A stretch of DNA of 64,000 nucleotides from an uncultured Methanosarcinales archaeon (GTDB lineage: Archaea > Nanobdellota > Nanobdellia > Woesearchaeales > JASKKU01). The notes beneath the pieces are model-generated. The model was given only the letters and a program-made list of their open reading frames with translations, had not been told where the DNA came from and ran no database searches. Location: assembly GCA_964445165.1 (NCBI GenBank), contig CAYUJZ010000002.1:1737-65736 (forward strand), given 5' to 3'. How positions within the stretch are numbered: the first letter of the stretch is position 1; every line of letters starts with the position of its first letter. Of this stretch, positions 1 through 19,692 are shown in pieces. A program made the translations under genes and the position numbers.

Positions 1-716
1 GCCATCAATTTTTCTTCTGGCTCTTCCAGTGGCACTAAAAAAGGAATAATGACTTCATGGTCTTCACCATCTCCAACTTTATTATACCTTATAATTGCCT
101 CAATATTTTTCCAGGTTGTGGAGATTTTTTTCTGACTTTCTCCGTCCTCATCACTTAAATAGCCTTCAACTGCAAAAAGAAACCTTTCCCCATATGTTTC
201 ATCCCTGAGCGGAACCTTTGTATCAATAAGATACTGAATCAGGCCTGATATTTCTCCGCCTTCAGAAACTTCCTCTGAGAAAGTTATCCTTGAGCAGATA
301 ACGCCGGCAAACCTCATGCCTGTAAAAAAATTATGATAAGGGTTAATTGTCCCTTTCTCAAGCATATCATGGCACCGGTAAAGCTCTTGGGCTATAATGT
401 CGCTGATAATCTCATCTCTTCTTTCCTCAAAGATATCGCCGTAATTAGCAACGCGCTGCCCGTCAATATAAACCGCTGACCTGGAGCCATCAATAGTAAC
501 GCTGTCATCAAATACCTGGACAAGCCTTGACTTGCAGTCAGCCAGCATAAGGCTTTTGCCCACAAACCTTATTTTGTCCCCTCCAGCCGCAGTTACCCTG
601 CATATCTGCTCATCGGTCATAAAAAAGCTCATAAGCGAGCCCTGGTCAAAAAGAATTGTCAGTAAGACAAACACAATCAAAACAAGCAGAATCCTCGCCA
701 AGGTTGAATGAGCCAT
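1..716 (-). CDS. hypothetical membrane-anchored protein (partial; C-terminus beyond window edge)
   Basis: Continuous minus-strand ORF from the ATG at 716 to position 1. Begins MAHSTLARILLVLIVFVLLTILF (N-terminal hydrophobic anchor) and continues without stops (…DEQICRVTAAGGDKIRF…). No family recognised. Confidence 0.4.
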   Translation of the reverse strand, partial: MAHSTLARILLVLIVFVLLTILFDQGSLMSFFMTDEQICRVTAAGGDKIRFVGKSLMLADCKSRLVQVFDDSVTIDGSRSAVYIDGQRVANYGDIFEERRDEIISDIIAQELYRCHDMLEKGTINPYHNFFTGMRFAGVICSRITFSEEVSEGGEISGLIQYLIDTKVPLRDETYGERFLFAVEGYLSDEDGESQKKISTTWKNIEAIIRYNKVGDGEDHEVIIPFLVPLEEPEEKLM

Positions 717-919
717 TTTAGCCTAAAAACCCCCGAATTACCGAAGAAATGATTATTATTGCCAGTACAAAAAGGATTGTCATTAATACAATCTCAACCC
801 AGCTTATACCTTTCTTGGATTTCACGCTTTCATTTTTAAATCAGGGGTTTATTAAATTTGTGGTTGAGAGAATCTTATTAAGAAAAAGCTTTTAAACTAT
901 AAAAAGTCACTCTTTTGGT

Positions 920-1894
920 ATGGTTACTTCAGAGATGTCATATGCTATAATTGAAAACCTGCTTTGCAGCCCTAAGAAAAGGGAGATTGTTGAGCTAATG
1001 ACAGAGTATATTCCAGGTGCAAGGGTTTTCTCCATAATTAGCACGCAGGACCTTGCATCAAAGATGAAAGAGATAAAAAGCTATGACCCCGACATTATTC
1101 TTTCAGTTGGCGGGGATGGAACTGCACATAATGTGCTCAACCAGATGTTTCAGGAAGGGCTTGAGAAAAAGATTTTTGGGTTGGTTCCTGCTGGCTCTGG
1201 GAATGACTTTTCAATGTATGGATTAGGCATGAGTGTTCCTAGCACTAAATCAAAGAAAGCGATTTTTAGAAGCATAGATGATTATATTTATCCGGATACA
1301 AAGCAGGTTGATGTTGGCTTGTTTAAAGCGGAATATGAGAGGATTGTGCTTAACAGCGTTGGGTTTGGCTATACTGCTGAGATTGCTTTTAACTCCCAGG
1401 ATTACTATCACTTTGGAAGGCTGAGGTATCTTGCTGCCGGGCTTGCAAGCTTTATGAACGGGCTAGGCAACTATGCTTCTAGGCTTGAGGAAGTAAAAAT
1501 AAACGGCAAGGATAGGGATATGCCGGATAAAAACCTGATTACGCTCGTTATGAACTCCAAGGCTTCAGGAGGCGGTCTTATGTTTAACCCTATAGGAAGT
1601 GTTTGCGATGGGGTGTTTTCTTTTATAACCCTGAAAGAGGTTGGCAAAGGAGAGCTTGCAAAGCTGCTCTGGCAGGTTATTAAAAAAAAGCAGTTCTACA
1701 AAGACTGGAATGTGATGTATAACGGCGATGTAAGTAAGGTTAGCGTGGCTTCTGATACCTTGAGGCTGGTTGAGCTTGATGGGGAGATTCTTCCGGCAAC
1801 AAAAAGATTCAGTGTGGAAGTGCTCCCTGCCAAGGTTAGAATGATTACTAAAAAATCAGAAAAGCATTCTCAGGACAGATTGACCTTTGCCTGA
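920..1894 (+). CDS. diacylglycerol/lipid kinase catalytic-domain protein (DAGK_cat, YegS/BmrU-like)
   Basis: ORF-track protein with LSVGGDGTAHNVLN (the GGDG ATP-binding motif of DAGK_cat lipid kinases) and a glycine-rich GLVPAGSGNDF segment. 324 aa. Confidence 0.6.
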   Translation: MVTSEMSYAIIENLLCSPKKREIVELMTEYIPGARVFSIISTQDLASKMKEIKSYDPDIILSVGGDGTAHNVLNQMFQEGLEKKIFGLVPAGSGNDFSMYGLGMSVPSTKSKKAIFRSIDDYIYPDTKQVDVGLFKAEYERIVLNSVGFGYTAEIAFNSQDYYHFGRLRYLAAGLASFMNGLGNYASRLEEVKINGKDRDMPDKNLITLVMNSKASGGGLMFNPIGSVCDGVFSFITLKEVGKGELAKLLWQVIKKKQFYKDWNVMYNGDVSKVSVASDTLRLVELDGEILPATKRFSVEVLPAKVRMITKKSEKHSQDRLTFA

Positions 1895-2410
1895 TTCAAT
1901 CTCTTCTTTTGTTAAGCCTTTAAACTCATGCGGGAATACGAGCCACTTATCTGTTTCGTGGATGTAGTAATCAGGGGTTATGCTTGTCTCGTTGTTCTCA
2001 GGCTTGTAGTAAAGCATTGCTGTCTTGATTTCCTTTGGGCAGTTTTCTCCTGAATCTGCTTTTAGTTTTTCTATAAGTGCCTTGATACTTAGGCCTGTGT
2101 CAAAAACGTCATCTACGATAAGGATTTTATCATCTTTCTTTACTCTTTTTGTTATGTAGCTCAGCCCGAAGATGTCTACTTTTGCCTTGTGCTTGTCTTC
2201 ACGGTTGTAGCCTGAAGTGCGTATTGCAATGTGGTCTGTGGGTATGCCCCAGAAATCCAGGGCTTCCTGAACGATGCAGCCCGGGAATGCCCCACCTCTC
2301 CATAACCCAATCAGATAATCCGGCCTGAAGCCTGATTCTTTTATCTTTCTTGCCAGAAGGACTGAATCTGTATAGAAATCACCTAAACTAACGAAAAGCT
2401 TGCCTGCCAT
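1856..2410 (-). CDS. purine (hypoxanthine/guanine-type) phosphoribosyltransferase
   Basis: Type I PRTase PRPP-binding motif KILIVDDVFDTGLS. 184 aa, the typical size for archaeal HGPRT. Confidence 0.6.
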   Translation of the reverse strand: MAGKLFVSLGDFYTDSVLLARKIKESGFRPDYLIGLWRGGAFPGCIVQEALDFWGIPTDHIAIRTSGYNREDKHKAKVDIFGLSYITKRVKKDDKILIVDDVFDTGLSIKALIEKLKADSGENCPKEIKTAMLYYKPENNETSITPDYYIHETDKWLVFPHEFKGLTKEEIESGKGQSVLRMLF

Positions 2411-2447
2411 GTTTTATGTGGAAGGCTGCTGCTTTTATTTTTTTTGG

Positions 2448-2573
2448 TTTGAGATAAGCGCCAGGGGAGGGATTCGAACCCCCGCTCCCAAAGGGACAGG
2501 CTCTCAAGGCCTGCGCAATACCAGACTATGCGACCCTGGCTCAGGCAGAAGAGTCTAGCGAAGCTTTATAAGG
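2448..2573. repeat. 126-bp direct repeat, copy 1 (whole tRNA-Ser gene plus both flanks)
   Basis: Bases 2448-2573 (tttgagataagcgccagggg…gaagctttataagg) are identical to 4286-4411. Confidence 0.9.
2459..2540 (-). tRNA. tRNA-Ser (anticodon UGA), copy 1
   Basis: Reverse complement folds as a tRNA. Acceptor stem GCCAGGG/CCCTGGC is 7 bp. T-loop is TTCGAAT. Anticodon stem CAGGC/GCCTG with loop CTTGAGA gives anticodon TGA. A 13-nt variable arm (TCCCTTTGGGAGC) marks a class II tRNA. A TATA-like TTATAAAG sits about 25 nt upstream on the minus strand. Confidence 0.75.
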
Positions 2574-2591
2574 AATATTAAAAACAAAAAG

Positions 2592-4262
2592 TTAATCATT
2601 ACACCTACTTGAGTTAATAAGGAATAAATATGGCAAATCGGTATCCTGAAATAATTCAGTACAATTCATAAAATTTTTATAGAGAGAAATCCTTTCAAGA
2701 CTACTATAAATTGCTGTTATATTTCTCTTCAGAATGTATTGATCTAACGAATGATTATAAATATTTAATGCTGCTTGATGATTTACCACACCATCAAGAT
2801 TAACAACATTGAAAGATGAGAAAAAAGACAATCTCCCTGAATCAAAAGAACCAATTATTAAACTGTCATCAAACCTTAATTCAAGCTCTTTTAACTTTTC
2901 AAAGAAATCGGATTCTTCTTTATTGATTAGTATTAGATAGGAAGTCAGAAAACCTGAAATTACAATTAAAAAACATAAAATAAACCTCGAAGAAGAACTA
3001 AAGGATAATATTTGTCTTCTAGATACAAGAATCAAAGAGATTAGAATCAAAAAAGAGGGCGTAAGAATGTACCATATTTGAAAATGGGATATATAAAAAA
3101 TATAAAAAAAGGCCATTGCAAAGCCCAATAAAGCAAAAAACCAACAATTTCGAAAATCGTAACTAGTTGCTGGCTTAAATAACTTAACTAAAAGAATAAC
3201 ACAAAAAAGGAAGATCATAATTGATATGGAAAAATCAGTAAAGTTACTTCCAGCAAAACGAATTGGATCAAAATAAAAGCCTGGAAGCAGAAAAAGAGAT
3301 AAGAAGCAACAAAAAAACATTAAAAGATTCCCAATGTTTTTTTTATCTAAAAAAGTCTTCCTGGAAAAAGAAGGAAAGTTAATAAAAATTAAAGGAAATA
3401 ACAAAATCGAACCAAAAATGCTTAAGAACTTAAGTGGCCATACTGCTAAATTTGTCATTTTAGCCAAGTTTTGATGATTGTATGTTTCTCTATAAGAAAG
3501 AACCTTGCCTGATTCTTGCATAAATGAACCGAAATTCAAGTATGAGTACACAAACCAAGGGCTAATTAATATTAAAAAAAACAAAAAAGATAGCATAAAT
3601 TTTTTAATTTGATCTTTTGAAAGAACAATCCTTCTATTCTTATATAAATAAAAAAGGAAACATAAAAAGATGGGTATAATTGTATCACTTCTTGAGAGAA
3701 AACTCAATGCACCAAAAACACCAAGCAGAATAAAAAAGTATAATTTTTTATTTTCTGAATTTAACAGCTTTACAAAAAGATACAAAAACAAAGAAAAGAA
3801 GAATAATGCAAGAGGGGTTTCTACTCCTTGTTTAGAAATAAAAAAAACAAGAGGACTGGAAACCCATATTAAAAGGAACAATAAAGAAATAAAGTTGTTT
3901 CGTATTGTATTTTTTATAATTAAGTATCCAATAACTCCAGAACCTATGATTAAACAATGCATAAGTAAATGAGAAAGGATTTGAATTGCATTTTCCGATA
4001 AACCTGAAAAATTATAAATGAAAATCAAATACAAAAGGTACAGAGGATGGAAACCATTTGTTGTTGAGAAGCCATCACTGGTAATGAAGCCAAATTTTTC
4101 ATAATTTCTTGCCAGAACAAGATAATAATAAAAATCGTCAGAAATAAAACTTTCTCTTGAAGAAGGTTCAAAAAAAAAGAGAAAAAAACCTGAAAAAGAA
4201 AAGTAAAAAATAATTGATATCAAAGCGATATAAAATAGACACTTTTTTTCTTTTTTATTCAA
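2592..4262 (-). CDS. polytopic membrane protein, GT-C-fold glycosyltransferase-like (PMT/ArnT/YfhO-like), on a low-GC island
   Basis: 556 aa with more than 12 predicted TM helices. An N-terminal short loop is followed by a long hydrophobic core and a C-terminal soluble domain (…VVNLDGVVNHQAAL…). Composition is dominated by F/L/I/K/N/S/Y. Local GC is about 25-27% (hand count of 60-nt lines) against about 47% in the flanks. Confidence 0.45.
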   Translation of the reverse strand: MNKKEKKCLFYIALISIIFYFSFSGFFLFFFEPSSRESFISDDFYYYLVLARNYEKFGFITSDGFSTTNGFHPLYLLYLIFIYNFSGLSENAIQILSHLLMHCLIIGSGVIGYLIIKNTIRNNFISLLFLLIWVSSPLVFFISKQGVETPLALFFFSLFLYLFVKLLNSENKKLYFFILLGVFGALSFLSRSDTIIPIFLCFLFYLYKNRRIVLSKDQIKKFMLSFLFFLILISPWFVYSYLNFGSFMQESGKVLSYRETYNHQNLAKMTNLAVWPLKFLSIFGSILLFPLIFINFPSFSRKTFLDKKNIGNLLMFFCCFLSLFLLPGFYFDPIRFAGSNFTDFSISIMIFLFCVILLVKLFKPATSYDFRNCWFFALLGFAMAFFYIFYISHFQIWYILTPSFLILISLILVSRRQILSFSSSSRFILCFLIVISGFLTSYLILINKEESDFFEKLKELELRFDDSLIIGSFDSGRLSFFSSFNVVNLDGVVNHQAALNIYNHSLDQYILKRNITAIYSSLERISLYKNFMNCTELFQDTDLPYLFLINSSRCND

Positions 4263-4285
4263 TATTTGTCCCTCTCTTTAAGCGT

Positions 4286-4411
4286 TTTGAGATAAGCGCC
4301 AGGGGAGGGATTCGAACCCCCGCTCCCAAAGGGACAGGCTCTCAAGGCCTGCGCAATACCAGACTATGCGACCCTGGCTCAGGCAGAAGAGTCTAGCGAA
4401 GCTTTATAAGG
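4286..4411. repeat. 126-bp direct repeat, copy 2
   Basis: Identical to 2448-2573. Its last 19 bp encode the C-terminus (…LIKLR) and TAG stop of the HAD gene at 4393-5001. Confidence 0.9.
4297..4378 (-). tRNA. tRNA-Ser (anticodon UGA), copy 2
   Basis: Sequence identical to copy 1, with the same upstream TATA-like element. Confidence 0.75.
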
Positions 4412-5001
4412 TTTTTTCTTTGGGCAAGGTAAACCTCTGAGAATTCTTTCATCAGGGGCTTGTCTCCCTTGCCATCGGTGTAGAGTATTATGTGCTTGCC
4501 CTGGAAGCCTCCAAGGTGCTGCCTTAGGCGCCTGAGCTTTTCTTTGCCATAGCAATTTTTGCCGTCAAGCCTGCCTGTAAACTTATTGTCTTTAAACTCG
4601 AGCTTTGTTGCGATGACCTCTTTTATGCCTAATGAATCTGCAAAGGGCTGCACCCAGTTTTCTATGGAAGCGGTTGCGATGATAACCCTGTTTTTCTTTT
4701 CAACATGGAAATTTATTTTTTCAAGTATTTTTTTGTTTAGGCGCTTTTGCATCCTGGCGTGGAACTTCCTGCACTTTTCATTGAAATAATCCAGGGTTGT
4801 ATTCCTGAAGAAGAAGCTAAGCAGGATCTCCTTTGCCCTAGAGTTTGTGATAAGCCCAAGCCTGTATGAGATAAAAACAGGAGAGAGAAGTGCAACACCG
4901 GATAAAAACTTAAAAGGCCCATAGTTAAATATAAGAAAAGCATACAGGGAATCCGTATTAATTATTGTCTCGTCAAAATCAAAGACCGCTATCTTTTCCA
5001 T
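4393..5001 (-). CDS. HAD-superfamily hydrolase (phosphoserine-phosphatase-like, HAD-IB)
   Basis: N-terminal HAD motif I VFDFDETII (DxDxT), a cap-domain segment, and C-terminal motifs GDGKGD…TDG. 202 aa. The 3' end lies inside repeat copy 2. Confidence 0.65.
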   Translation of the reverse strand: MEKIAVFDFDETIINTDSLYAFLIFNYGPFKFLSGVALLSPVFISYRLGLITNSRAKEILLSFFFRNTTLDYFNEKCRKFHARMQKRLNKKILEKINFHVEKKNRVIIATASIENWVQPFADSLGIKEVIATKLEFKDNKFTGRLDGKNCYGKEKLRRLRQHLGGFQGKHIILYTDGKGDKPLMKEFSEVYLAQRKNLIKLR

Positions 5002-5007
5002 TTTTGC

Positions 5008-6144
5008 TCAGTAAGGGTCCCATTCCTTGATTTCTTCATACTTAGGGAACTTGCCGTAGGGGTACTGCTTAAAAAGCTTTCCCCACTCGGTTTTGTTGAA
5101 CTGGGCTATCTTCTTTTTTCCTGTGGTTGGGTACCACAAGGAGTCGTGGTAAAAGCCTGATGCGAATATAAACATCTTGAACAAGGGTGAATGGAAAAGA
5201 AGGTTGTGGAGCCATTTTATGTTTGATGTGCCTTTCCTTATCCTCTGGTCCCACTTGATTACCAGGCTCTTTTTTGTCTGGAAGCCAAAGTTTAGCCTTT
5301 TGAACTCGCTTTCCGGCATTCCAAGGATTTTTATCCTGTTAAGGCCTGCGTTTCCCAGGCCTGCGTCATCTGCCAGCTTAAGGTACTTGATTCTCAGTGG
5401 GTCAAAGCCCATGATTTTTGCTGCAACTGCATCAATGGCAACCTGGTCGTCACCTGCAAGGATTATGTTTCCTATGTAGGGCTCCATTACCCTGGGGCCT
5501 GCGCCGTCCCCGCATACTGTGCCGTCCATAACCGCAAAGACACTGCTGTGGATTTCTTTCTGTATTGAGAGAAGGTCTACCAGGACTTCATGTATCTTTT
5601 TGTGGGCATGGTGCCTGTACTTTGGGATTAAGCCGCCGAAAGCGTTTTTCATAGCGCCTGTGGTTGTGGTGTGGCCGTGGGTTTTTACAGTAGGGAGGTG
5701 AACTACATTTGAGCCGAAGAACATTTTAGGCACCAGAATCTCGCCGAAAAGGTCTTTCATTGCGAGCATTTTTGACTTTGGCCTGTGGGTTACCCACTCG
5801 ACGTCAGTAAGGGGCTGGTACTTAACCCCGTACTTTTTTAGCATAGGGAGCCATTTGTTGTCGTAGGCGCCTTTCCAGGGGTGTGTGACAACAGTCTGGT
5901 TCTCAACGCCTACTATCTTTTCATAGCCGTCTTTTTTAAGTGTCCTGAGAAGGCCTTCGAGCTGCCAGGGCTGGGTTGAGCAGGCTGGGTAGTAGAGGCT
6001 CCAGGAAAGGTTGAGCTTTATAATGGTCTCTGCTGTCTTTTTTATGATTTTTTCGTATGCACAGAGATGCAGGAGCTTTTCGTAATCATCAAGAACTGTC
6101 TCTGGCGATGTCCTTAGTACCGCAACTTTGCTTTGCATTTTCAT
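5008..6144 (-). CDS. DUF362-like protein
   Basis: 378 aa with IIKLNLSW…P segments and MDGTVCGDGAGP, which is reminiscent of DUF362-family proteins. The match is from memory, not a search. Confidence 0.4.
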   Translation of the reverse strand: MKMQSKVAVLRTSPETVLDDYEKLLHLCAYEKIIKKTAETIIKLNLSWSLYYPACSTQPWQLEGLLRTLKKDGYEKIVGVENQTVVTHPWKGAYDNKWLPMLKKYGVKYQPLTDVEWVTHRPKSKMLAMKDLFGEILVPKMFFGSNVVHLPTVKTHGHTTTTGAMKNAFGGLIPKYRHHAHKKIHEVLVDLLSIQKEIHSSVFAVMDGTVCGDGAGPRVMEPYIGNIILAGDDQVAIDAVAAKIMGFDPLRIKYLKLADDAGLGNAGLNRIKILGMPESEFKRLNFGFQTKKSLVIKWDQRIRKGTSNIKWLHNLLFHSPLFKMFIFASGFYHDSLWYPTTGKKKIAQFNKTEWGKLFKQYPYGKFPKYEEIKEWDPY

Positions 6145-6185
6145 TCAGGATGGGGATGGCTGGCTCTTTTAAATGTTTTCAAAAG

Positions 6186-7055
6186 CTAGCCCAGGATAGC
6201 GAAGCCATTGGTGTAGTAGAATGCAAAGAGCATGTAAACAAACCAAAGGAACAGGGAAGAGAGAAGAACCTTGTCCCTCACCAGCAGGCGCTCTATAGAC
6301 TCAACATTGTGTTTTTTTAAGTTAAGGTAGAGGTATCTCAGGAGCGCAAGCACCACAAAAAAAAGCGAGTACATCACCATCTCTGAGTGCGCGCCCAGGA
6401 TGCAGTAGATTGCATAAAACACTATGCAGGAGGTTACTGACAAAACCAGCATCGCATCCAAGATGCCTTCAGTATATGACTCAAGGACTTTTCTTTTGTT
6501 TTTTATGTGAACCAGCTCTGACTTCCTCTTCCCTACTGCAAGCATCAGCGCCAGGAAGAATGTGGCGAAAACAATCCAGGGAGTAATCTTGATGTTGACA
6601 GGGATTCCTCCGGCGAGTATCCTTATCACGAAGAGAAACCCAACGAGAAACACATCAAATACCGGGATATGCTTCAGCCTGAAGCTGTAGAGCAGGTTTA
6701 TGCCAATGTAGGCGAAGATTATCAGGGATGCTGTAAAATGCAGCCTTGAGAGGACTGCCAGCATAAAGATTCCCAGCAGGCAGGCAAGTGCAAGCGCCTC
6801 AAGGGTGCTTACTTTTCCTGAGGCAATCGGCCTTTTTGACTTTATGGGGTGAAGCCTGTCTTTTTCTTTGTCTGCTATGTCATTAACTATGTAGACAATG
6901 CTGGAAGCAAAAGAAAAAGCCAGAAAAACCAGAAACACGCTTATAAACAGGGGTATGTTGGTGATGTTCTCAGAGAAGAAAAGAGGCGCAAAGATTACTG
7001 CGTTCTTGTAAAAATGCGAAACCCTGAGGCACTTTATGTAGCTTAAAACTTTCAT
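6186..7055 (-). CDS. UbiA-family prenyltransferase (DGGGP-synthase-like / polyprenyl-phosphate phosphoribosyltransferase-like)
   Basis: UbiA Asp-rich motif NDIADKEKDRLHPIKSKRPIASGKVS. 289 aa with 8-9 TM helices. Confidence 0.7.
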   Translation of the reverse strand: MKVLSYIKCLRVSHFYKNAVIFAPLFFSENITNIPLFISVFLVFLAFSFASSIVYIVNDIADKEKDRLHPIKSKRPIASGKVSTLEALALACLLGIFMLAVLSRLHFTASLIIFAYIGINLLYSFRLKHIPVFDVFLVGFLFVIRILAGGIPVNIKITPWIVFATFFLALMLAVGKRKSELVHIKNKRKVLESYTEGILDAMLVLSVTSCIVFYAIYCILGAHSEMVMYSLFFVVLALLRYLYLNLKKHNVESIERLLVRDKVLLSSLFLWFVYMLFAFYYTNGFAILG

Positions 7056-7428
7056 TAAGCAGTAGATAAAAGTGTGCTTTAAATGTTTTTCGCCGGGTTT
7101 TTGCTGAAAAAGAAGAGCTTAATTGACTTCAGCAAATTATTCAGAAAAAGAGGAATTATCCAGAAAAAAGCCTACTCCTTTAGCCACAATTTTCTGCTTA
7201 AATTCAGAGCTGTCAAACAGCTTTTTCTGCTCAGGCGTTAAATCCTGGCCACACTTTGCCTCATTTAAATATGTTGCGTTTATCAAACGCAACTTTTATA
7301 ACTGTTGGGAAAACGCTTAATTCCCTGAGTTCTAGCTGATTCCTGAAAAATAACAAAAATTTTAAATAACATCCCAAAACCTGACTCTTATCTGGATTCG
7401 TTCCGGGCTGCAGTTAGGGGGCTTAAAA

Positions 7429-10350
7429 ATGCGCGTACTTGATGAGATTGATGATGTAATTGAAGACAGAAAAGACAAGAAAACCAAGGTTCTGCTTACT
7501 ATTGTGCTTATTCTTATTCCTATGCTTCTGGCTATTTTCATAAGGGTGCAGCCTGCCTACCTGCCTATTACTGATGAATGGGCGAGAGACAGCATTTACA
7601 ATGGGATTGGCAACCAGATACAGCAGCAGGTTAATGCGCAGTACCCTCTCCTGCCTGAGCAACAGAAGCGAAGCATTGTGCAGGAGCAGCTTGACGAGTA
7701 TATTAGGCAAAATAGTGAGATGATTGAAAGGGAAATTCAGAGGTATTCCCTTGAGCTGAAGGAAAAGCTCAAAGAAGACGAGGGAAATATAACTTACCTT
7801 ACTGCGATTGACCCATACCATTACTTCAGGCTTACCAGGAACATAGTTGAGCTGGGGCATCCCGGAGACATGATGCTTGAAGATGGCAGAAACATTGACT
7901 ACCTTATGCTTGGCGGGGCGCCGATTGAGAGAAAGCCAACCTACCACAGAAGGTTTACAAACCTGCTTGAGCTGATCAATGCAAACACTTACAGGATGCT
8001 GCGCTTTCTCGGCTCTGATGTAACGCTTCTGCAGGTGGTGTTTTTTAGCTCTGTCTGGCTTTCTGCAGCCTGTGTGATTCCTGCTTTTTTCATCGGGAAA
8101 AGGCTTGCCGGAAACATTGGAGGGTTTTTTGCAGGGGCAGTTATTGCTATCCACCCTTTCTTTGTCTCCAGGACTATTGGCGGGTTTGCTGATACCGATG
8201 CTTTTAACATTCTGTTTCCACTGATTGCCGCTTGGATGCTTATTGAGGCTTTCAGGAGCAGAAACACCAGGAATACTGTAATATTCTCTGTGCTTACTGC
8301 CGTTACATTATGGATTCTCTCAACGGCGTGGACTCCTGGGCCAACGCTTATAGTGCTTCTGGGCGCGCTTGCTGCCAATGTGGCGCTTGCGCTGATTCTT
8401 TACAACACCGCAAGGTTCAAGGATAACAGGAAAGGCAAGGGCTATGCTTTTATGGCAGTGAATGCCGGGCTGATAGCGGTTATACTGCTTGCTCTTTACT
8501 TCATTGACACTAGCCTGCTTCCCTGGGGAGGCCTGTTCCAGGGGACTGTTTCAAATATTTTCTTAATTATATTCTTTTCAACAATATTTGCCGGGTTGAT
8601 TTATCTTGCATCTGAGCTGTTATCTTCGGGGCTGAAGAGAGATGTTTCTGAAAAGAAGCAGTTTTTTAGGAAGGAAGCAAAGATTACTTTGCTGATTCTG
8701 GGAGTCTTTTTTGTGTCTTATTTTCTGATGAGCTCATACAACTTAAGGTCAGGAGGCTTTAACTTTAGCAATATGATAGACAACATCGGAGCAACGATAG
8801 GGTTTGTCCAGATTAAGGATGTTGCGACTGGCACTATCTGGCCGAATGTTTACACGACTGTTGCTGAGCTAAAACAGGCAAGCTTCAGCCAGATTGTTGA
8901 TAACCTTGGGGGGCAGTTCCTCTTCTTTGTCTCTTTGATAGGAATTGGTATAGCTGTTTTTGCGAAAGGTAGGGGCAAAAACAATACTGCATTGTTCTCC
9001 CTGCTTCTTGCGATCTGGATGGCTTCAACTGTGTACGCTACATTCAAGGGAATCAGGTTTGTGCTTATGATCGTGCCGCCTTTTGCGATTGCGATCGGGG
9101 TTGCGATTGGGCTGGGCGGAAAATACTTAGCTGGCATGCTTGAAAAGAACTTCCAGATAAAAGCAAGCATCACCAAGCTGCTTCTTGTGGCTTTGTTTGT
9201 GTTTGTGCTGTTTTTCGGCACTGACTCTATGTACTCAAATGCCTACCAGCTTTCATCAAGGCAGTTCCCTATGATGAACGACGGATGGTTTGGGTCCTTA
9301 TCTGAAATCAATGAAAAGTCAGACGAGGATGCTATCATAACGTCCTGGTGGGATTTTGGGCACTGGTTTAAGGCAATAGCAAGAAGGCAGGTCACTTTTG
9401 ACGGTGCGAGCCAGAATACGCCGATGGCGCACTGGGCTGGAAGAATACTGCAGACTGACGATGAGACTGAAGCATTAGCGATACAAAGGATGCTTAACTG
9501 CGGCTCTAACGAGGCGTTTTATATCCTTGAGGAGAACCTCACGGACGCTGCTGCAATAAGGATTGTTAAGGACATTATTATGATGCCAAGGGAGGATGCA
9601 AGGCAGCACCTTCTTAATTATGTAAGCGAGGATGCTGCTGAACAGATTCTTCAGTATTCGCACTGCACTCCGCCTCAGTCTTTCTTTATCACATCTGAAG
9701 ACATGGTTGGGAAATCTGAGGTTTGGGGGCACTTCGGCACCTGGAACTTCACAAGGTCAACGATGTACAACAGGGTTAGGTTTTTGGGGGAGGCTGAAGC
9801 CCTGGAGATTTTAAAGGATTACTTTAACCTGAGCGATGAGCTTGCAAGGAGGTATTACTACCAGATAAGGGTTACTGACAATGCTGATGAGTGGGTTTCT
9901 CCCTGGCCTTCCTATATCGGGGCAGAGATCAGCTGCACGAAGAGAAATAATGAAACTATCCTGGAATGCACGAGAATGTTCTCGGCTACGCAGGGCGTAA
10001 AGGTGTTTATCAACCTTACCTCAATGGAGGCTTATGTGAGCCAGATGGAAAACGGGAGCAGGCCGCACTCTTTTGTTTACTATGATGATGAGGGGAACTC
10101 TTACATCAAAGAATATGAGTCGCCTTTGCTTGACCTGTCAGTAACCCTGAAAGAGCGTGCTGACGGAAGCTACCAGATTGTCATGGGCGACCCGCTGCTT
10201 AGAAACAGCATGTTCACGAGGCTGTTTTTCCTTGAGGGGCACGGAACGAATTACTTTAAAGAATTCAGCAACATAAGGGATGTTTTTGGGCAGAGGGTAA
10301 TTGTGTGGACTATTGACTGGGAGAGCTTTTTAGAGGATTTTGAGGGCTGA
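7429..10350 (+). CDS. aglB: archaeal oligosaccharyltransferase AglB (STT3 family)
   Basis: 973 aa. A 13-TM N-terminal domain is followed by the diagnostic WWDFGHW (WWDYG) motif at SWWDFGHWFKA and a large C-terminal periplasmic domain. Confidence 0.85.
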   Translation: MRVLDEIDDVIEDRKDKKTKVLLTIVLILIPMLLAIFIRVQPAYLPITDEWARDSIYNGIGNQIQQQVNAQYPLLPEQQKRSIVQEQLDEYIRQNSEMIEREIQRYSLELKEKLKEDEGNITYLTAIDPYHYFRLTRNIVELGHPGDMMLEDGRNIDYLMLGGAPIERKPTYHRRFTNLLELINANTYRMLRFLGSDVTLLQVVFFSSVWLSAACVIPAFFIGKRLAGNIGGFFAGAVIAIHPFFVSRTIGGFADTDAFNILFPLIAAWMLIEAFRSRNTRNTVIFSVLTAVTLWILSTAWTPGPTLIVLLGALAANVALALILYNTARFKDNRKGKGYAFMAVNAGLIAVILLALYFIDTSLLPWGGLFQGTVSNIFLIIFFSTIFAGLIYLASELLSSGLKRDVSEKKQFFRKEAKITLLILGVFFVSYFLMSSYNLRSGGFNFSNMIDNIGATIGFVQIKDVATGTIWPNVYTTVAELKQASFSQIVDNLGGQFLFFVSLIGIGIAVFAKGRGKNNTALFSLLLAIWMASTVYATFKGIRFVLMIVPPFAIAIGVAIGLGGKYLAGMLEKNFQIKASITKLLLVALFVFVLFFGTDSMYSNAYQLSSRQFPMMNDGWFGSLSEINEKSDEDAIITSWWDFGHWFKAIARRQVTFDGASQNTPMAHWAGRILQTDDETEALAIQRMLNCGSNEAFYILEENLTDAAAIRIVKDIIMMPREDARQHLLNYVSEDAAEQILQYSHCTPPQSFFITSEDMVGKSEVWGHFGTWNFTRSTMYNRVRFLGEAEALEILKDYFNLSDELARRYYYQIRVTDNADEWVSPWPSYIGAEISCTKRNNETILECTRMFSATQGVKVFINLTSMEAYVSQMENGSRPHSFVYYDDEGNSYIKEYESPLLDLSVTLKERADGSYQIVMGDPLLRNSMFTRLFFLEGHGTNYFKEFSNIRDVFGQRVIVWTIDWESFLEDFEG

Positions 10351-10387
10351 TTTTTAGGGAAACGAGAGCTGTTAAAGGGAAATACAA

Positions 10388-11578
10388 ATGAGCCAGAAAG
10401 AAAACTGGATATTTGATAGAGGCCTGTTTAGCAACAAGAAGGTTTTGGCAGCTCTACTTTTTTGTGTTGCTTTTGTTCCTACTTTTATTCAGGTTGTCCT
10501 GAAAATGGTAATCCTCAGGGGGCCAAAGTTTGCTATTACACATCTGTTATTTAACTATGAGATAGAGTTTGTTAAAAGGGGGCTAATAGGAGAATTGCTG
10601 AGGCTTGTTTTTTCCGAAATAACTTTTAAGATTGCTATGGCTTTCTTCTTTATAATACTAGCAGTCGCGCTGGCTGTGCTGGTGCTTGTCTTTTTTAAGC
10701 CCTATAAGCTCTATAAAAAGCCTGGGCTTTTTCTTTTCTTCCTTCTTGCAATAACGCATTTTGCAACTGCAAACCAGTTTATTTATGACATCGGAAGGTT
10801 TGACCAGTTTCTTCTAATTATAACCTTTGTTTGCATGATTATGATATGCCGGCTCAAAACGCTGAGCTATTTCCTGCTGCCTTTGCTGATTGTTTTGGGG
10901 CTTCTTATACATGAGGCTTTCCTTTTTATGTTTATACCCCTGATTTTTGCCTATTACATCTACAAGAGAAGAATGGTAAAAAGAGAGCTTGCTTTCTTAT
11001 TCCTGCTCGGGGGCTTAGCTATTTGCTCTACATACATTATTGGAACAAGAGGAATGGTTACGACAATGGGTTATGAAGAGTATTATAGCAACCTCAAAGA
11101 AGGCGAGAAAGCGCTCGTGTCTGAGGGTGCCTCGAATATTCCTTTCAGGGGGCTAAAGGACAATTTAGAATACAGCTTTGCAAGGAACAGGGACAAGAAT
11201 TTCTTTCTGGACCACATGATATTCTTAATCGCGCTTAGCCCGACTATTTTCCTTTTTGGGAAAATCTTCAAAGCACTAGTAAGAAACAGAAAAGAGCTGC
11301 TTCTTGCTTTTTCTGCATTAACTCCTCTTTTGCTCTACTTGCTGGGGCATGACTTTGCAAGGTGGTGGGGGCTAGCTATAACAAATGCCTTTATAGTTAT
11401 ATCGCTTCTTGCGCTTAAAAAGAGCAGCTCTGAGAAACTGGAGAAGGCTTGTATTGAAAACAAGCACTTAATCATTAACGCAATAATTATCTCATTAGTC
11501 TTGGGCCCAATCGGGATTTACAGTTTCTTCCCTAGGATTGTTGAAGGAATCAAGTTCCTGGTGATGTTTGTTTTGTGA
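10388..11578 (+). CDS. uncharacterised polytopic membrane protein (paralog A; candidate Wzy-like polymerase or ligase)
   Basis: 396 aa, multi-TM. Shares long identical stretches with 13121-14323, for example YE(I/L)EFVKRGLIGE, KPGLFLFFL.AITHFATANQFI.DIGRFDQ and GLLIHE.F.FMFIPLI.AYYIYK. Confidence 0.5.
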   Translation: MSQKENWIFDRGLFSNKKVLAALLFCVAFVPTFIQVVLKMVILRGPKFAITHLLFNYEIEFVKRGLIGELLRLVFSEITFKIAMAFFFIILAVALAVLVLVFFKPYKLYKKPGLFLFFLLAITHFATANQFIYDIGRFDQFLLIITFVCMIMICRLKTLSYFLLPLLIVLGLLIHEAFLFMFIPLIFAYYIYKRRMVKRELAFLFLLGGLAICSTYIIGTRGMVTTMGYEEYYSNLKEGEKALVSEGASNIPFRGLKDNLEYSFARNRDKNFFLDHMIFLIALSPTIFLFGKIFKALVRNRKELLLAFSALTPLLLYLLGHDFARWWGLAITNAFIVISLLALKKSSSEKLEKACIENKHLIINAIIISLVLGPIGIYSFFPRIVEGIKFLVMFVL

Positions 11579-11602
11579 TTAAAAGAAAATGTTTTTATAT
11601 GA

Positions 11603-13114
11603 TTGCCTGATAGTTTTTCCTGGAAAATGAGCGAGAGCCTTAAGCAGACTGTCAGGAAGAATGTCTTTTTTCTTTACCTGTTCTCTTTTCTTGTTATTCC
11701 TGTGAGCTTTGCAATAAGGATTGTTCTTGCGAGGAATCTTTCCGGGGCTGATTTCGGGCTTGTTTACTCTCTGCTTAGCTTCTTTGGGCTGATTAGCATA
11801 TTTAATGACTTTGGGCTTACTGAAACTTTGAACTATCATGGTGTGAGGTTCTACGAGAAAAAGAGGCTTGGCAGGCTTAAGGGCGCTGTGCGGATTGCTT
11901 TTCTTTCCCAGACGATTACTGCTGTTGCGATTGGGCTGGTGCTTTTCTTTTTTGCGCCCTGGCTTGCTGAGAATTATTTTCATTACCCTATGGCTGGGGC
12001 GGCTTTGCAGGCCGGGCTGCTTTATTTCCTGTTCTTCAACATGTCCAGGGCTTTTGTGACTGCGGTAAATGTTACCCAAAATGTGTTTTACAACAAGATG
12101 TTTGAGGTGTTTAACCTTGCTGTGGTCGCAGCCGGGGTGGTGGCTTTGTGGCTTACCGGCAGGCTGAGCGCTGAGGGAACGATGCTGTTCTGGGGGATGG
12201 GAATTTTTATTGTCTTTATTCTTTCATTCTTTGTTTCAAGGAGCAAGATTAGGGAGATTTCGCGTGTGAAGGCTGAGGCTGACTTTGGGCTGTTTAAGAA
12301 GCTGTTGAAGTATTCTTTGTTTGTTGCGCTTGGGACAGGGGCGATGTATGTGCTGAGCTATTCTGACCTGCAGGTTATAACTTACTTTTCCACGCTTGAG
12401 AATGCGGGGCTTTACAGCGCTGCGAGCTCTATCTCTAAGGTGCTGGCCGGGCTTGCACTGCCTATCGCTGCGCTGCTTTTCCCGCTCGGGTCCAAGCTTT
12501 TTTCAGAGGGCAGGAAAAAGGAGATTAAGGCTATTCTTGAGCTGACTTACTCATTGGGCTTTTTTGTGGCTGTGCCGTTTTTTCTGCTTGCGAGTGTTTT
12601 TTCTAAGGAGGTTCTTCTGGTAATCTTCGGGCAGGGGTTTGTTGCCTCGCAGGGGGCTTTGCTGGTGCTGCTTGCTGCGAAAGTGTTTTATGTGTTTTTC
12701 TCTATTAACTTTGCTTTCAGCGCTGCTTTCGGAAGGGTTAAGGAAAGAACCAAGTACCTTTATTTTGCTGCCTTGCTGAATATTGTGCTGAGCATCCTGC
12801 TTGTGAGGGTGCTTGGGATTGTCGGGGTTGCTGTGGGGACTCTGGTGACTACCTTGTTTCTCTTTGGGTCTACTTACTTTATTGTGAATAAAGAGGTGCC
12901 TTTCTCGATTGACTTTTTTTATATCCTGAAGACTGTGTTTCTTTCCCTGGGGGTGCTTGTGCTTGCTTTTGGCGTGAAGGCAGTGATGCCTGGGCATTAT
13001 GTGGTTAAGGCTGTTGTTATTGGAGGGCTGGCTTGTGCTGTTTACCTGCTTGGGGGGATTAAGCTTAAGCTTGTGGATGTCAAGAAGATTCTTGCAATGG
13101 TTAGGGAGAGGTGA
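11603..13114 (+). CDS. Wzx-like oligosaccharide flippase (MOP/polysaccharide biosynthesis protein family)
   Basis: 503 aa with about 14 TM helices and the organisation typical of PST/Wzx flippases. It sits in the glycan locus next to aglB. Confidence 0.6.
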   Translation: MPDSFSWKMSESLKQTVRKNVFFLYLFSFLVIPVSFAIRIVLARNLSGADFGLVYSLLSFFGLISIFNDFGLTETLNYHGVRFYEKKRLGRLKGAVRIAFLSQTITAVAIGLVLFFFAPWLAENYFHYPMAGAALQAGLLYFLFFNMSRAFVTAVNVTQNVFYNKMFEVFNLAVVAAGVVALWLTGRLSAEGTMLFWGMGIFIVFILSFFVSRSKIREISRVKAEADFGLFKKLLKYSLFVALGTGAMYVLSYSDLQVITYFSTLENAGLYSAASSISKVLAGLALPIAALLFPLGSKLFSEGRKKEIKAILELTYSLGFFVAVPFFLLASVFSKEVLLVIFGQGFVASQGALLVLLAAKVFYVFFSINFAFSAAFGRVKERTKYLYFAALLNIVLSILLVRVLGIVGVAVGTLVTTLFLFGSTYFIVNKEVPFSIDFFYILKTVFLSLGVLVLAFGVKAVMPGHYVVKAVVIGGLACAVYLLGGIKLKLVDVKKILAMVRER

Positions 13115-13120
13115 GGGCTT

Positions 13121-14323: not shown

Positions 14324-14902
14324 TTAAGGCGGGTTGTGCCCACAAACAAAGTCGTTATGCACTTTTATTCTTTTTATGCTTGCCAGGAAGACTCCTGCGA
14401 ACAGGAGCATTATTGCGATTGTGTTTCTCCAGGCGATTACTCCTGGCTTGATGTCTGGGTCTGTTGTGTAGCGCCAGTCTATTGAGGCCTGGGGGGTGTA
14501 TTTTTCCAGCCTGAAGTGGAACAGGGGAACAAGGCTTGAGTATGTTGAAACCTCGAGCTCTGCGGTTACGAAGTCTTCTGAGAAGGGGTATAGGAGCGGG
14601 ATGCCTCCGTAGCTTAGGTCTAAAAGCAAATGTGAGAATAGGAAAAAGGATATTACGAACAGGCATCTTGCGTATTTTGAGTCTTTTAGCCTGAATATAA
14701 CTGCTATCAGAAGGATGATTATGGGTATGAAGATGCTGTGTGAGAAGGTCCTGTGGACTGCTGTGCCGAGAAAAACATCGAAATCCGGCAGAATTGCAAA
14801 AACCGAGAGCACTAATGAGGAGAGGAGTATCTTGTTGTACTTAAGCTGGTCGTAGAGTATGAGTGCAATAAGCGGAAAGAGCCAGTGGCTTAGCAGGTCC
14901 AT
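14324..14902 (-). CDS. membrane-bound metal-dependent hydrolase (YdjM/DUF457 family)
   Basis: 192 aa, about 5 TM, with the HRTFSHS motif (the HRxxTHS signature of the DUF457/YdjM family). Confidence 0.5.
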   Translation of the reverse strand: MDLLSHWLFPLIALILYDQLKYNKILLSSLVLSVFAILPDFDVFLGTAVHRTFSHSIFIPIIILLIAVIFRLKDSKYARCLFVISFFLFSHLLLDLSYGGIPLLYPFSEDFVTAELEVSTYSSLVPLFHFRLEKYTPQASIDWRYTTDPDIKPGVIAWRNTIAIMLLFAGVFLASIKRIKVHNDFVCGHNPP

Positions 14903-17312: not shown

Positions 17313-17313
17313 A

Positions 17314-18471
17314 TTAAATCCTTTTTATTGCCTGGTAATTCCTTTCGCAGTTGTGATTATCTATGTGCTTAAAAAACTTATCGGCTCTTTCTGCGTATTT
17401 TTTCTCCGTCTCAAAGCTTTTTGTTTCATTAATTCTCTTAAGAATTCTTTCAAGCTCATCTATCATCTGCTTCTCTGTTTTTACTACCTTGCCAAAGCCT
17501 TCTTTATCGTAATCGAAGATGTCTTCATAATGATACTTCCCTATCTGGTAGAATATCATATGCCTTTTCATATAAGCAAAGTCGAAAAGCACGCTTGAGT
17601 AGTCGGTGATTAGCAGTGCTGAGCGTTTAATGAGAGCTGAAATGTTGTTGTTTTTATCTGTCTTATCACCGATTACTTTTACCCTCTCAAATTCTGAGTT
17701 GAAGAGGTGAGAGTATTTTTGCATAACATAATGAAGCACAAAATTCAGCCTGAAATCATACTTTTCAAGAAGCTTATTTATGGAGCCTGAATTAATGATA
17801 TTATTAAGAGCAATATAGTACTTGTGCTTCTTAAACTCTTCTTCACTCGCACCCTGAAGGCTTTTCTTCCAGCTCATCATCACAAGTATCTCTCTTTCAG
17901 GCTGCGCACCATAGAGATTATCAAACCTGGCTAATCCGGTGATTTTTATCTCTTTTTCATATCCCATATATTTCTTGACAATCTGAGCTTCTTTTTCTGC
18001 AGAACAGACAAACATGTCAAAATGCCAGTACTTCTTATGGTATGGATTAACTTTAGACTTGATTACTCCATGCTGAAGAAAGATTAATTTTGTTCTTGGC
18101 TTAAGAAGTTTCTTCAAAGAGTAGCCTTCTTTATAAAAATAAAAAGGGTCCGTATCGTAGCTAAAGATTAACTTGCCTGCGTGCACAAAATACCAGAGAT
18201 GCCTTAAAGAGAACCTGTAAACAACATTTTTGTCCTCAAGCATTTCCTTAAATTCTGCAGATTTCTTGTTTTTGCATAAGAATACAGAGGTTATTTTCTT
18301 ATCTTTTTTCTTTACGTAATTGTAAAGGTAATAAGCATTGTCAATACCGAAAGGCCTTTCTATGAAAAACCAGATTTCTTTCTTTTTGAGAAACCAGAAT
18401 GGCTTAAATATAATATAGAAAAAAATCAAGTAAGCCATATATACTGCTGCCTTGAACCTGCTTTCTATCAT
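17314..18471 (-). CDS. CDP-glycerol glycerophosphotransferase-like (TagB/TagF, Glyphos_transf family)
   Basis: 385 aa. The FLQHGV…KITGLARFDNLY region resembles the conserved HG…G.PR.D core of TagF-family enzymes. Its stop overlaps the AlkP-like gene by 1 nt (17312/17314). Confidence 0.5.
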   Translation of the reverse strand: MIESRFKAAVYMAYLIFFYIIFKPFWFLKKKEIWFFIERPFGIDNAYYLYNYVKKKDKKITSVFLCKNKKSAEFKEMLEDKNVVYRFSLRHLWYFVHAGKLIFSYDTDPFYFYKEGYSLKKLLKPRTKLIFLQHGVIKSKVNPYHKKYWHFDMFVCSAEKEAQIVKKYMGYEKEIKITGLARFDNLYGAQPEREILVMMSWKKSLQGASEEEFKKHKYYIALNNIINSGSINKLLEKYDFRLNFVLHYVMQKYSHLFNSEFERVKVIGDKTDKNNNISALIKRSALLITDYSSVLFDFAYMKRHMIFYQIGKYHYEDIFDYDKEGFGKVVKTEKQMIDELERILKRINETKSFETEKKYAERADKFFKHIDNHNCERNYQAIKRI

Positions 18472-18669
18472 TTGACTAACAAGAATAAACCTTTTTACAA
18501 TGATATTTAAAATTAATGTTTTTTAAAATTGTTATACTCTTTTAATATAATGGTATTTTCCCTGGTTTTTCGTCTAGGTTTGCTGAATTGCCTTTAAAAA
18601 CAGATTAAAAACACGAGAATTTTTTTTACGACAGAAAATCACTAGAAACCCAACACATCACATCTAGTT

Positions 18670-19685: not shown

Positions 19686-19692
19686 TTTCTGT

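Follow-up and report, generated by a model that had tools for sequence, protein, structure and literature searches.

How does an uncultivated DPANN archaeon come to carry, between two identical tRNA genes at the edge of its surface-glycan locus, a single gene of aberrant base composition, and what might the product of that gene do? The question was raised by a 64,000-nucleotide stretch of contig CAYUJZ010000002.1 (assembly GCA_964445165.1), here called the window, in which an earlier reading made from the letters and their translations (the sequence-only reading) had picked out a single-gene low-GC island at the edge of the glycan genes and had suggested horizontally acquired glycan-modification capacity. 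We found that positions 2574-4411 are a 1,838-bp insertion made up of 1,712 bp of foreign DNA and an extra copy of a 126-bp host segment. This cassette segregates, being present in some and absent from other, near-identical genomes of one natural population. Its single gene, referred to below as the cargo gene, is predicted to encode a glycosyltransferase of the GT-C fold. The locus offers a clean population-level case of surface-glycan gene variation in an uncultivated DPANN archaeon, with one gene present or absent between genomes that are otherwise 99.9% identical, and presence/absence variation of this kind is expected to affect virus or host recognition.

The cargo open reading frame (ORF) lies exactly where the sequence-only reading had placed it (Table 1) and is the single plausible gene of the 1,712-bp unique segment (2574-4285); a 100-aa antisense ORF at 3670-3972 was rejected as a by-product of AT-rich sequence. 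The unique segment has a G+C content (GC) of 27.2%, whereas equal-sized windows average 43.1% (standard deviation [SD], 3.1%), and this is the lowest value of the whole 64 kb; the flanks have 41-50% GC, against 27% across the gene. GC at third codon positions (GC3) is 23.3%, compared with 49.7 ± 4.5% in the 36 other genes of the window, and both GC and GC3 fall 5-6 SD under the host values, which bears out the extreme AT bias in codon usage that had been described. The bias is not an artefact of encoding a membrane protein, since the host polytopic membrane proteins (UbiA, the flippase, and AglB) have GC3 values of 53-58%. An in-frame alternative TTG at 4223 would give a 543-aa product, as in the public annotation (P0001); the 556-aa form has a K-rich N terminus ahead of its first transmembrane (TM) helix and is preceded by a Shine-Dalgarno-like motif.

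On either side of the gene lies one copy of a 126-nt direct repeat (100% identity), which had not been noticed in the sequence-only reading. Between the two copies there are 23 nt, the ORF, 18 nt with two T5 runs, and nothing else. Each copy contains a complete 83-nt tRNA-Ser(UGA) gene, and these two identical minus-strand genes, which immediately flank the cargo gene, are the only tRNA genes of the whole window, with equal scores (ARAGORN; Rfam, 55.8 bits). The repeat begins inside the ORF of a HAD-family phosphatase; for this reason the TATA-like box of the tRNA overlaps the 3' coding end of the HAD gene, and the repeat as a whole is host-derived sequence. The 33-nt 5' part of the repeat occurs exactly twice in the window, with no occurrence expected by chance. 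Because the duplicated segment spans the whole tRNA-Ser(UGA) together with its promoter-like box, both tRNA copies are intact.

Contigs of the same organism were recovered with exact-match probes from the neighboring DUF362 and HAD proteins and were then compared with the window by blastn. In NCBI, proteins that share 90%-identity clusters with the neighboring proteins carry the name "Candidatus Woesearchaeota archaeon," which points to a DPANN host of the Woesearchaeota type. In four samples, the recovered contigs align to the two flanks with 99.9-100% identity and have exactly one copy of the 126-bp segment, without the cassette: L089/L094 (ERZ27252282), L092 (ERZ27252306; 128.7 kb), L095 (JGI 3300037528), and L096 (JGI 3300033167). 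The junction running from the HAD gene through the repeat into the cassette was recovered in three samples (L093/L001; L098, ERZ27252292; and L099, JGI 3300033171). The cassette sequence is 100% identical wherever it was recovered, and the flanks of occupied and empty alleles diverge by no more than 0.1%. The suggestion of horizontal acquisition is thus upheld by near-identical host contigs from four other samples that hold the exact empty site. Sister genomes also have no ortholog of normal GC: none of the 287 retrieved proteins and 91 locus ORFs exceeds 29% full-length identity to the cargo protein. A protein-pattern scan of JGI metagenome contigs found no relatives of the cargo, and a scan with the exact right-junction sequence found no further copies.

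One sample yielded the cassette as a stand-alone contig. L091 (ERZ27252306 k141_76424; 1,813 bp) corresponds to window positions 4292..2480, begins 7 nt before the end of one repeat, stops 94 nt into the other, and reaches no host flank; the same sample also yielded the large host contig L092, in which the site is empty. L091 is consistent with a minor integrated allele and with an excised 1,838-bp circle. In a comparison of the near-identical strains outside the cassette, 7 of the 10 single-nucleotide polymorphisms (SNPs) between L089 and the window (11.9 kb) fall in 310 bp (14495-14804) within an ORF of the YdjM family, a clustering that suggests either local recombination or hypervariability of this small gene.

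Could a low-GC foreign contig simply have been fused to host DNA at a shared tRNA sequence? The sequences come from metagenome assembly, the insert is bounded exactly by the repeat, and in one sample the cassette is a separate 1.8-kb contig, all of which would suit such a chimera. It is nonetheless very unlikely, because the final MEGAHIT k-mer of 141, inferred from the contig names, is longer than the 126-nt repeat, so that single k-mers span both junctions; because the repeat holds host-specific HAD coding sequence that is not expected in a foreign organism; and because three samples, one of them a JGI assembly, each gave the left junction in an independent assembly. An assembly-loop artefact was rejected on the grounds of k-mer length and the independently assembled junctions. 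The window corresponds to ENA contig ERZ27252303:k141_163062. Compared with L001, the ENA contig of the same sample, it shows 5 SNPs over 14.2 kb (positions 1-14223), none of them within the cassette; given these differences, the window is probably a separate (NCBI metagenome-assembled genome [MAG]) assembly version and thereby a further independent assembly of the occupied allele, and both versions carry the insertion.

Recent gain and loss by recombination between the repeats would each account for the polymorphism, and the search for a donor lineage among JGI contigs, viral contigs, and retrieved relatives (≤29% identical) was without result; both points weaken the case for a recent gain. 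In the converse account, the population started out with the cassette, and repeated loss through homologous recombination between the 126-nt repeats produced the empty alleles. Perfect direct repeats of this length are a good deletion substrate and would leave the empty site that is observed, empty alleles are no rarer than occupied ones (four samples versus three), and the stand-alone contig L091 is compatible with an excised circle. However, the insertion itself appears to be young, because its GC3 (23% versus 50%) shows no amelioration and its repeats are still 100% identical, and the flanks of the two alleles have hardly diverged. We therefore regard an ancestral occupied state as possible but on the unlikely side. 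Gain and loss are not mutually exclusive, and the function of the cassette would be the same either way.

For gain of the cassette, we propose, as the simplest mechanism, that a small circle carrying the 126-bp segment would recombine by a single (Campbell-type) crossover with the chromosomal 126-bp segment; the reverse crossover between the repeats would result in precise loss of the cassette, and the tRNA copies would stay intact either way. No recombinase is encoded between the repeats, where the GT-C gene is the sole ORF. The locus combines a one-copy empty site, a repeat of more than 30 bp, an insert of less than 20 kb, and no mobility gene, and it thus belongs with the "insertions with long target duplication." This class comprises bacterial restriction-modification units with repeats of more than 30 bp, no mobility gene, and a one-copy empty site (PMC2853133); it was described by Nobusato 2000, as cited in Furuta et al. 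2010 (PMC2853133), and the survey of Furuta et al. gives no archaeal case. The cassette shares with the restriction-modification units its short length and deviant GC, the lack of a mobility gene, the long direct repeats, and the one-copy empty allele in a sister genome. It differs from them in its glycosyltransferase cargo and archaeal host and in having duplicated an entire tRNA gene and its promoter, so that two intact tRNA copies are present and the cargo follows a tRNA promoter. With this cassette, the class, so far described for bacterial restriction-modification genes, takes in an archaeon and the duplication of an entire tRNA gene.

Integrase-mediated integration targeted to the tRNA would be another route, with the cassette as the remnant of a larger element or as a non-autonomous unit mobilized in trans. 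tRNA genes are classic targets of integrases, integration may duplicate an entire tRNA gene (PMC2853133), and the repeat does hold the full tRNA-Ser. Set against this, there is neither a recombinase nor space for one between the repeats, and the repeat is not limited to the conserved tRNA core: its first 33 nt lie upstream of the tRNA and reach back into HAD coding sequence that is specific to the host. The viral contigs contain no member of the cargo family and no copy of the tRNA-Ser 3' half, and a remnant would require an internal deletion that spared both perfect repeats. Integrase-mediated entry is, in our judgment, unlikely.

In the occupied allele, the cargo gene would lie directly behind the tRNA promoter and may be transcribed from it. 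Since no oligo-T tract separates the upstream tRNA from the ORF, read-through from this promoter is possible. The T runs that follow the stop codon of the cargo gene look like an archaeal terminator, and the duplicated promoter would leave the downstream tRNA and phosphoribosyltransferase gene in their original context.

Table 1. Positions of the cassette, the adjoining operon, and other genes discussed in the text (window coordinates)
Feature	Coordinates	Strand	Content and basis
Direct repeat copy A, 126 nt	4286..4411	-	HAD 3' 19 nt including TAG stop (4411-4393); TATA-like CTTATAAAG; tRNA-Ser(UGA) (4378-4296); 10-nt trailer
Cassette 5' spacer, 23 nt	4263..4285	-	Shine-Dalgarno-like GAGAGGG, 7 nt before TTG start; sequence read
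Predicted GT-C-fold glycosyltransferase gene (cargo)	2592..4262	-	556 aa, TTG start; ORF listing, alignment, fold
Conserved cargo residues			D42 D43 xx Y46 Y47; T68-N-G-F-H72-P-L-Y; E148; R191/D193; W397-Y398; V486-V-N-L-D490-G491
Cassette 3' spacer, 18 nt	2574..2591	-	CTTTTTGTTTTTAATATT; two T5 runs straight after stop codon; sequence read
Direct repeat copy B, 126 nt	2448..2573	-	Same as copy A; HAD 3' 19-nt fragment (2573-2555); tRNA-Ser(UGA) (2540-2458)
HAD-IB phosphatase	4393..5001	-	DxD motif FDFDET; Pfam HAD, 118 bits; TIGR01490, 103 bits, above cut-off
DUF362 protein, LarA-like fold	5008..6144	-	Pfam, fold match, recurrent UbiA adjacency
UbiA-family polyprenyl-phosphate 5-phosphoribosyltransferase (DPPRS/PPPRS type)	6186..7055	-	NDxxDxxxD motif; NCBIfam, PDB match
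Polytopic protein, 396 aa	10388..11578	+	
MOP-family flippase	11603..13114		
Polytopic protein, 400 aa	13121..14323	+	
YdjM-family ORF	14324..14902		
CDP-glycerol glycerophosphotransferase gene	17314..18471	-	Glyphos_transf

What does the cargo encode? Hydropathy and an AlphaFold model agree on approximately 13 TM helices, followed by a 110-aa C-terminal alpha/beta domain (predicted local distance difference test score [pLDDT], 84-93), and this matches the more than 12 helices and the C-terminal soluble domain given in the sequence-only reading. The N terminus has 4 K/R within 11 residues, and the first loop is acidic and 62 aa long (residues 31-92); in the model, the C-terminal domain faces outward. 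When the model (predicted template modeling score [pTM], 0.78; pLDDT, 73) was searched against the PDB with Foldseek, ranks 1-21 were all GT-C proteins at a probability of ~1.0 (AglB, STT3, PglB, DPY19, AftB, AftA, ArnT, PimE, and Pmt1/2/4), with ArnT (5ezm) having the highest target-normalized TM-score, 0.50. A sequence-profile search of the PDB gave GPI mannosyltransferase I as the best and sole significant match. The number of TM helices with a cytoplasmic N terminus, the acidic motif in loop 1, and the fold similarity are all features of the GT-C superfamily, and on the strength of the model we assign the cargo protein as a GT-C(A)-fold glycosyltransferase with a catalytic-type DD motif in its first outward-facing loop.

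By sequence, the protein stands well apart. A Pfam scan gave no match at E ≤ 0.1, with the gathering threshold of PMT_2 (PF13231; 26.1 bits) not reached, and the NCBIfam model NF047440 (Leptospira LA_3751/LA_3752 putative glycosyltransferase) scored 17.1 bits (E = 0.0019), below its 200-bit cut-off. Its relatives are more telling: 25 of the 40 family members scanned match PMT_2 (best E, 3.3e-12), and 18 of the 40 match NF047440 weakly. A word-indexed search returned 10 distant homologs with 21-35% identity, in the alignment of which D42-D43, Y47, T68/G70/H72/P73, E148, R191/D193, Y398, and D490-G491 are invariant. Across 40 sequences, D43 is invariant and D42 at least 90% conserved, and both lie in the first extracytoplasmic loop. 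When 1.84 billion cluster representatives were searched exhaustively with a profile, 4,791 of them matched at E ≤ 1e-30 (about 4,800 clusters at 50% identity), and a genome scan gave at least 445 family loci, mostly in bacterial MAGs (Chloroflexota, candidate phyla radiation, Eisenbacteria, and Myxococcota) and in few archaea. These sequence relationships indicate a large family that is related to PMT_2 and has no curated model. With the ArnT/PMT_2 clan, the cargo protein shares the approximately 13 TM helices, the loop-1 acidic motif, and the outward-facing C-terminal domain; unlike that clan, it falls below all Pfam thresholds and has motifs of its own (DDxxYY, TNGFHPLY, and VVNLDG) that lie outside the PMT_2 definition.

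Another kind of polytopic membrane protein, such as a transporter, a Wzy-type polymerase, or an O-antigen ligase, is a highly improbable identity for the cargo. It would be in keeping with the lack of a Pfam match for the protein itself and with the poor prediction of residues 265-370, which also weakens the assignment to GT-C. Every significant fold match is to a GT-C protein, however, and MATE, MurJ, and ABC transporters reach a Foldseek probability of at most 0.06; relatives match PMT_2, and the loop-1 DD motif is as in ArnT, PglB, and PMT. Pfam scans of the protein and its relatives found no Wzy_C, EpsG, or O-antigen-ligase (WaaL) match. The GT-C-like label of the sequence-only reading accordingly holds, and its companion label, "polymerase type," is not supported. 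At two unrelated bacterial loci with family members, IS200-like Y1 transposase genes lie within a few kilobases (L003, 3216-3668; L010, 15224-15988), which hints that other members of the family are also found in mobile or variable regions.

The genes next to the cassette suggest a donor for the predicted transferase. A UbiA prenyltransferase, AglB, and a flippase had been placed within 5 kb of it; the first two do lie that close to the cargo gene (1.9 kb and 3.2 kb, respectively), and the flippase is farther off, at 7.3 kb. The UbiA protein does belong to the UbiA family but is not a generic prenyltransferase. The NCBIfam models that it matches best describe decaprenyl-phosphate phosphoribosyltransferases (NF008977; 196 bits; E = 6e-58), and it matches Mycobacterium tuberculosis Rv3806c (PDB 8j8j) over its full length at E = 6.6e-33, the next UbiA structure being at 8e-4. 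It is a polyprenyl-phosphate phosphoribosyltransferase by these matches, and the predicted donor sugar therefore changes. The HAD protein is 36% identical to the HAD protein in a DprE1/E2-containing operon (locus L005), and we propose it as a candidate 5'-phosphatase that would convert polyprenyl-P-ribose-5-P to polyprenyl-P-ribose.

The third protein of the operon, DUF362, is approximately 70% identical to proteins across Methanosarcina, Methanobacterium, Methanoperedens, Methanothrix, and Methanomassiliicoccales, and it recurs beside DPPRS-type UbiA genes at archaeal and bacterial loci (L025, 11804-12958; L010, 13803-14981; L090, 10001-11128). A sequence search of the PDB gave no match for it. 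Its structural model (pTM, 0.82) has one significant fold match, to the LarA-like nickel-pincer-nucleotide enzyme 9q3j (E = 3e-4). Enzymes of the LarA type catalyze racemization or epimerization, and because of this likeness we offer the speculative suggestion that DUF362 could be a one-protein epimerase or modifier of the lipid-linked pentose, in place of DprE1/E2. DUF362 and the LarA N-terminal domain are united in Pfam clan CL0471 (PMC11770544).

Modules with UbiA and DUF362 are also seen in Methanosarcina barkeri Wiesmoor (L090; CP009526), which has two paralogous ones (4805-11128 and 16793-21128) consisting of UbiA, a large membrane protein (902 aa without a Pfam match or a 455-aa PMT_2 GT-C), a PHP phosphatase, LPG_synthase_TM, and DUF362, with IS110 and DDE transposase genes between the two. 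These modules suggest that methanogens have a conserved pathway of lipid-linked glycosylation that is so far undescribed. The GT-C partners in them were considered as members of the cargo family and rejected.

Taken together, the neighboring genes would make up the following route. UbiA would add ribose-5-P from phosphoribosyl pyrophosphate (PRPP) to a lipid phosphate, and HAD would then strip the 5'-phosphate; a flippase would expose the lipid-linked pentose on the outer face, where the cargo GT-C would transfer it to a surface glycan or glycoprotein and alter the surface of the carrier strains. We hypothesize that the cargo enzyme uses a polyprenyl-phosphate-linked pentofuranose (ribofuranose or a DUF362-made derivative) from the resident operon, a proposal to which we give an even chance, and that the cassette probably confers on carrier cells a different surface-sugar decoration. 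Serotype or phage-receptor variation, as raised in the sequence-only reading, would be a possible consequence. A pentofuranose is proposed as the donor because the adjoining operon has a DPPRS-type UbiA and a HAD and because family members serve as the GT-C of UbiA modules. In four unrelated modules, a cargo-family GT-C, confirmed with the hidden Markov model (HMM) of alignment A3, occupies the GT-C slot: UbiA-GtrA-DprE1-like-DprE2-like-[family]-HAD in L005/L006 (family member P0011), PHP phosphatase-[family]-DUF362-UbiA-EamA-EamA in L025 (a Methanosarcinales MAG with 30% GC), [family]-SMR-x-UbiA-NAD epimerase-Wzy in L064 (Saccharibacteria), and [family]..UbiA-DUF362 in L010. The L025 member is the nearest relative of the cargo by pairwise distance.

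Several observations weigh against the pentofuranose donor. UbiA genes are near only 3 of 80 family loci, against 16 for GT4, 15 for NAD-dependent epimerases, and 7 for GT2 (neighbors were clustered as stop-to-stop ORFs, which is noisy in high-GC MAGs, and the three largest real clusters were kept after Pfam confirmation); the family as a whole is therefore not tied to pentofuranose donors. A neighbor-joining tree of 91 family members is saturated (bootstrap 0), leaving a UbiA-linked clade undecidable. The adjacency to UbiA may be a coincidence, as the insertion site was set by the tRNA repeat. No SMR or GtrA flippase adjoins UbiA in the window, where the sole flippase is the MOP-family protein 7 kb off; L025, L064, and L005 do carry EamA, SMR, and GtrA genes, respectively. 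Strains with the empty allele retain UbiA-DUF362-HAD, and the operon must therefore have another consumer, none of which was found within the window.

It may thus be that the recently inserted GT-C uses another lipid-linked donor, such as a dolichyl-phosphate hexose made by a GT2 enzyme encoded elsewhere, and that its position beside UbiA-DUF362-HAD is accidental. This is a serious possibility, although short of even: GT2 genes resembling polyprenyl-P-sugar synthases are adjacent in more of the 80 loci than UbiA is, the site of insertion was dictated by the 126-nt repeat, and the operon's retention in empty-site strains makes it independent of the cargo gene. On the other side, the cassette shares its strand with the only operon that would make a GT-C donor and lies ~130 bp downstream of it; the family members closest to the cargo (L025 and L010) are among the few that lie within UbiA-DUF362 modules; and the glycan locus, in its annotated part, shows no lipid-sugar synthase of the GT2 type.

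The pentofuranose route has close counterparts in bacteria. In the three-component systems, a UbiA-type synthase and a HAD phosphatase make polyprenyl-P-ribofuranose from PRPP (Kelly et al. 2024, PMC11127046), a flippase exports this donor, and outside the cytoplasm a GT-C attaches the pentofuranose to the completed glycan; optional epimerases (DprE1/E2 or short-chain dehydrogenase/reductase [SDR] enzymes) turn ribose into arabinose or xylose, and gain or loss of a component changes the serotype (PMC11127046). In Citrobacter youngae O1/O2, the components are ORF15 (PPPRS-PRP), ORF14 (a MATE flippase), and ORF12, the GT-C prototype of CAZy family GT136, which has 11 TM helices, a C-terminal beta-rich carbohydrate-binding module, and the conserved residues D31/E34/Y35, H106, and R349/Y350 (PMC11127046). 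Like these systems, the present locus combines a UbiA of the DPPRS type and a candidate phosphatase of the HAD family with a GT-C that has a loop-1 acidic residue and an outward C-terminal domain; it would likewise be an add-on that diversifies a surface glycan, with scope for pentose epimerization. It differs from them in its archaeal (DPANN) host, PMC11127046 covering bacteria only; in a phosphatase that is a separate protein rather than fused to UbiA; in a LarA-like DUF362 in place of DprE1/E2 or an SDR epimerase; in having no dedicated MATE or SMR flippase adjacent; and in a GT-C that is alone mobile while the donor pathway is resident. The GT-C is also of an uncurated family and, compared with ORF12 as described, departs from the GT136 layout, with ~13 TM helices and a small, 110-aa alpha/beta C-terminal domain instead of the beta-rich module.

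A second counterpart is the mycobacterial decaprenyl-phospho-arabinose pathway (Rv3806c, Rv3807c, DprE1/E2, and Rv3789, with EmbA/B/C and AftA-D as transferases). The UbiA protein matches Rv3806c as closely as an ortholog would, the cargo has AftB and AftA among its fold matches, and the distant family member P0011 lies in an operon with UbiA, GtrA, and DprE1/DprE2-like genes. In contrast, the cargo has no detectable sequence similarity to the Emb and Aft families, the window has no DprE1/E2, and its phosphatase is a HAD protein, Rv3807c being a PAP2-class phosphatase. The product here would presumably be a side chain or cap, not an arabinan polymer.

The serotype-converting gtr cassettes of Shigella and Salmonella temperate phages, which integrate at tRNA genes, provide a third comparison. 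They bring their own lipid-sugar synthase (GtrB) and flippase (GtrA) on an integrase-bearing prophage. As in those cassettes, the DNA here is horizontally acquired and tRNA-associated, and a polytopic transferase would modify an existing surface glycan outside the cytoplasm from a lipid-phosphate sugar, with strain-level antigenic variation as the outcome; unlike them, the transferase alone is mobile, with no phage or integrase. The phage gtr cassettes have been cited as prototypes (PMC11127046).

The locus provides a testable predicted activity, pentofuranosyl transfer from a lipid phosphate, for part of a GT-C family of ~4,800 clusters, and it suggests that the bacterial three-component systems have an archaeal counterpart, one that includes a conserved LarA-like DUF362 partner. 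A broader and doubtful conjecture is that a lipid-linked pentofuranose pathway extends from methanogens to DPANN archaea, with a LarA-like nickel-pincer-type DUF362 replacing DprE1/DprE2, and that the 1.8-kb tRNA-bounded unit is a minimal mobile plug-in transferase cassette for it. If both parts were true, the unit would excise as a circle, reinsert by recombination across a whole tRNA gene, and borrow the tRNA promoter, and a resident donor pathway would be rewired to a new acceptor, with strain-level surface variation arising without a recombinase of its own.

Two other parts of the glycan locus deserve mention. The 396-aa and 400-aa polytopic proteins that flank the MOP flippase (Table 1) are paralogs with 54% aa identity, and a 425-nt stretch of their genes is 74.6% identical; they belong to a rare family without a Pfam model. 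As native GT-Cs for the UbiA product, they were rejected, having no family HMM match and a weak or no PMT_2 match. One homolog is labeled Wzy in UniRef, and the two may be polymerase-type proteins. The second-lowest GC region of the window coincides with the CDP-glycerol glycerophosphotransferase gene (GC, 34.5%; GC at second codon positions, 23%), which lies beside a type I phosphodiesterase gene and two GT4 genes and may be another acquired or fast-evolving glycan gene.

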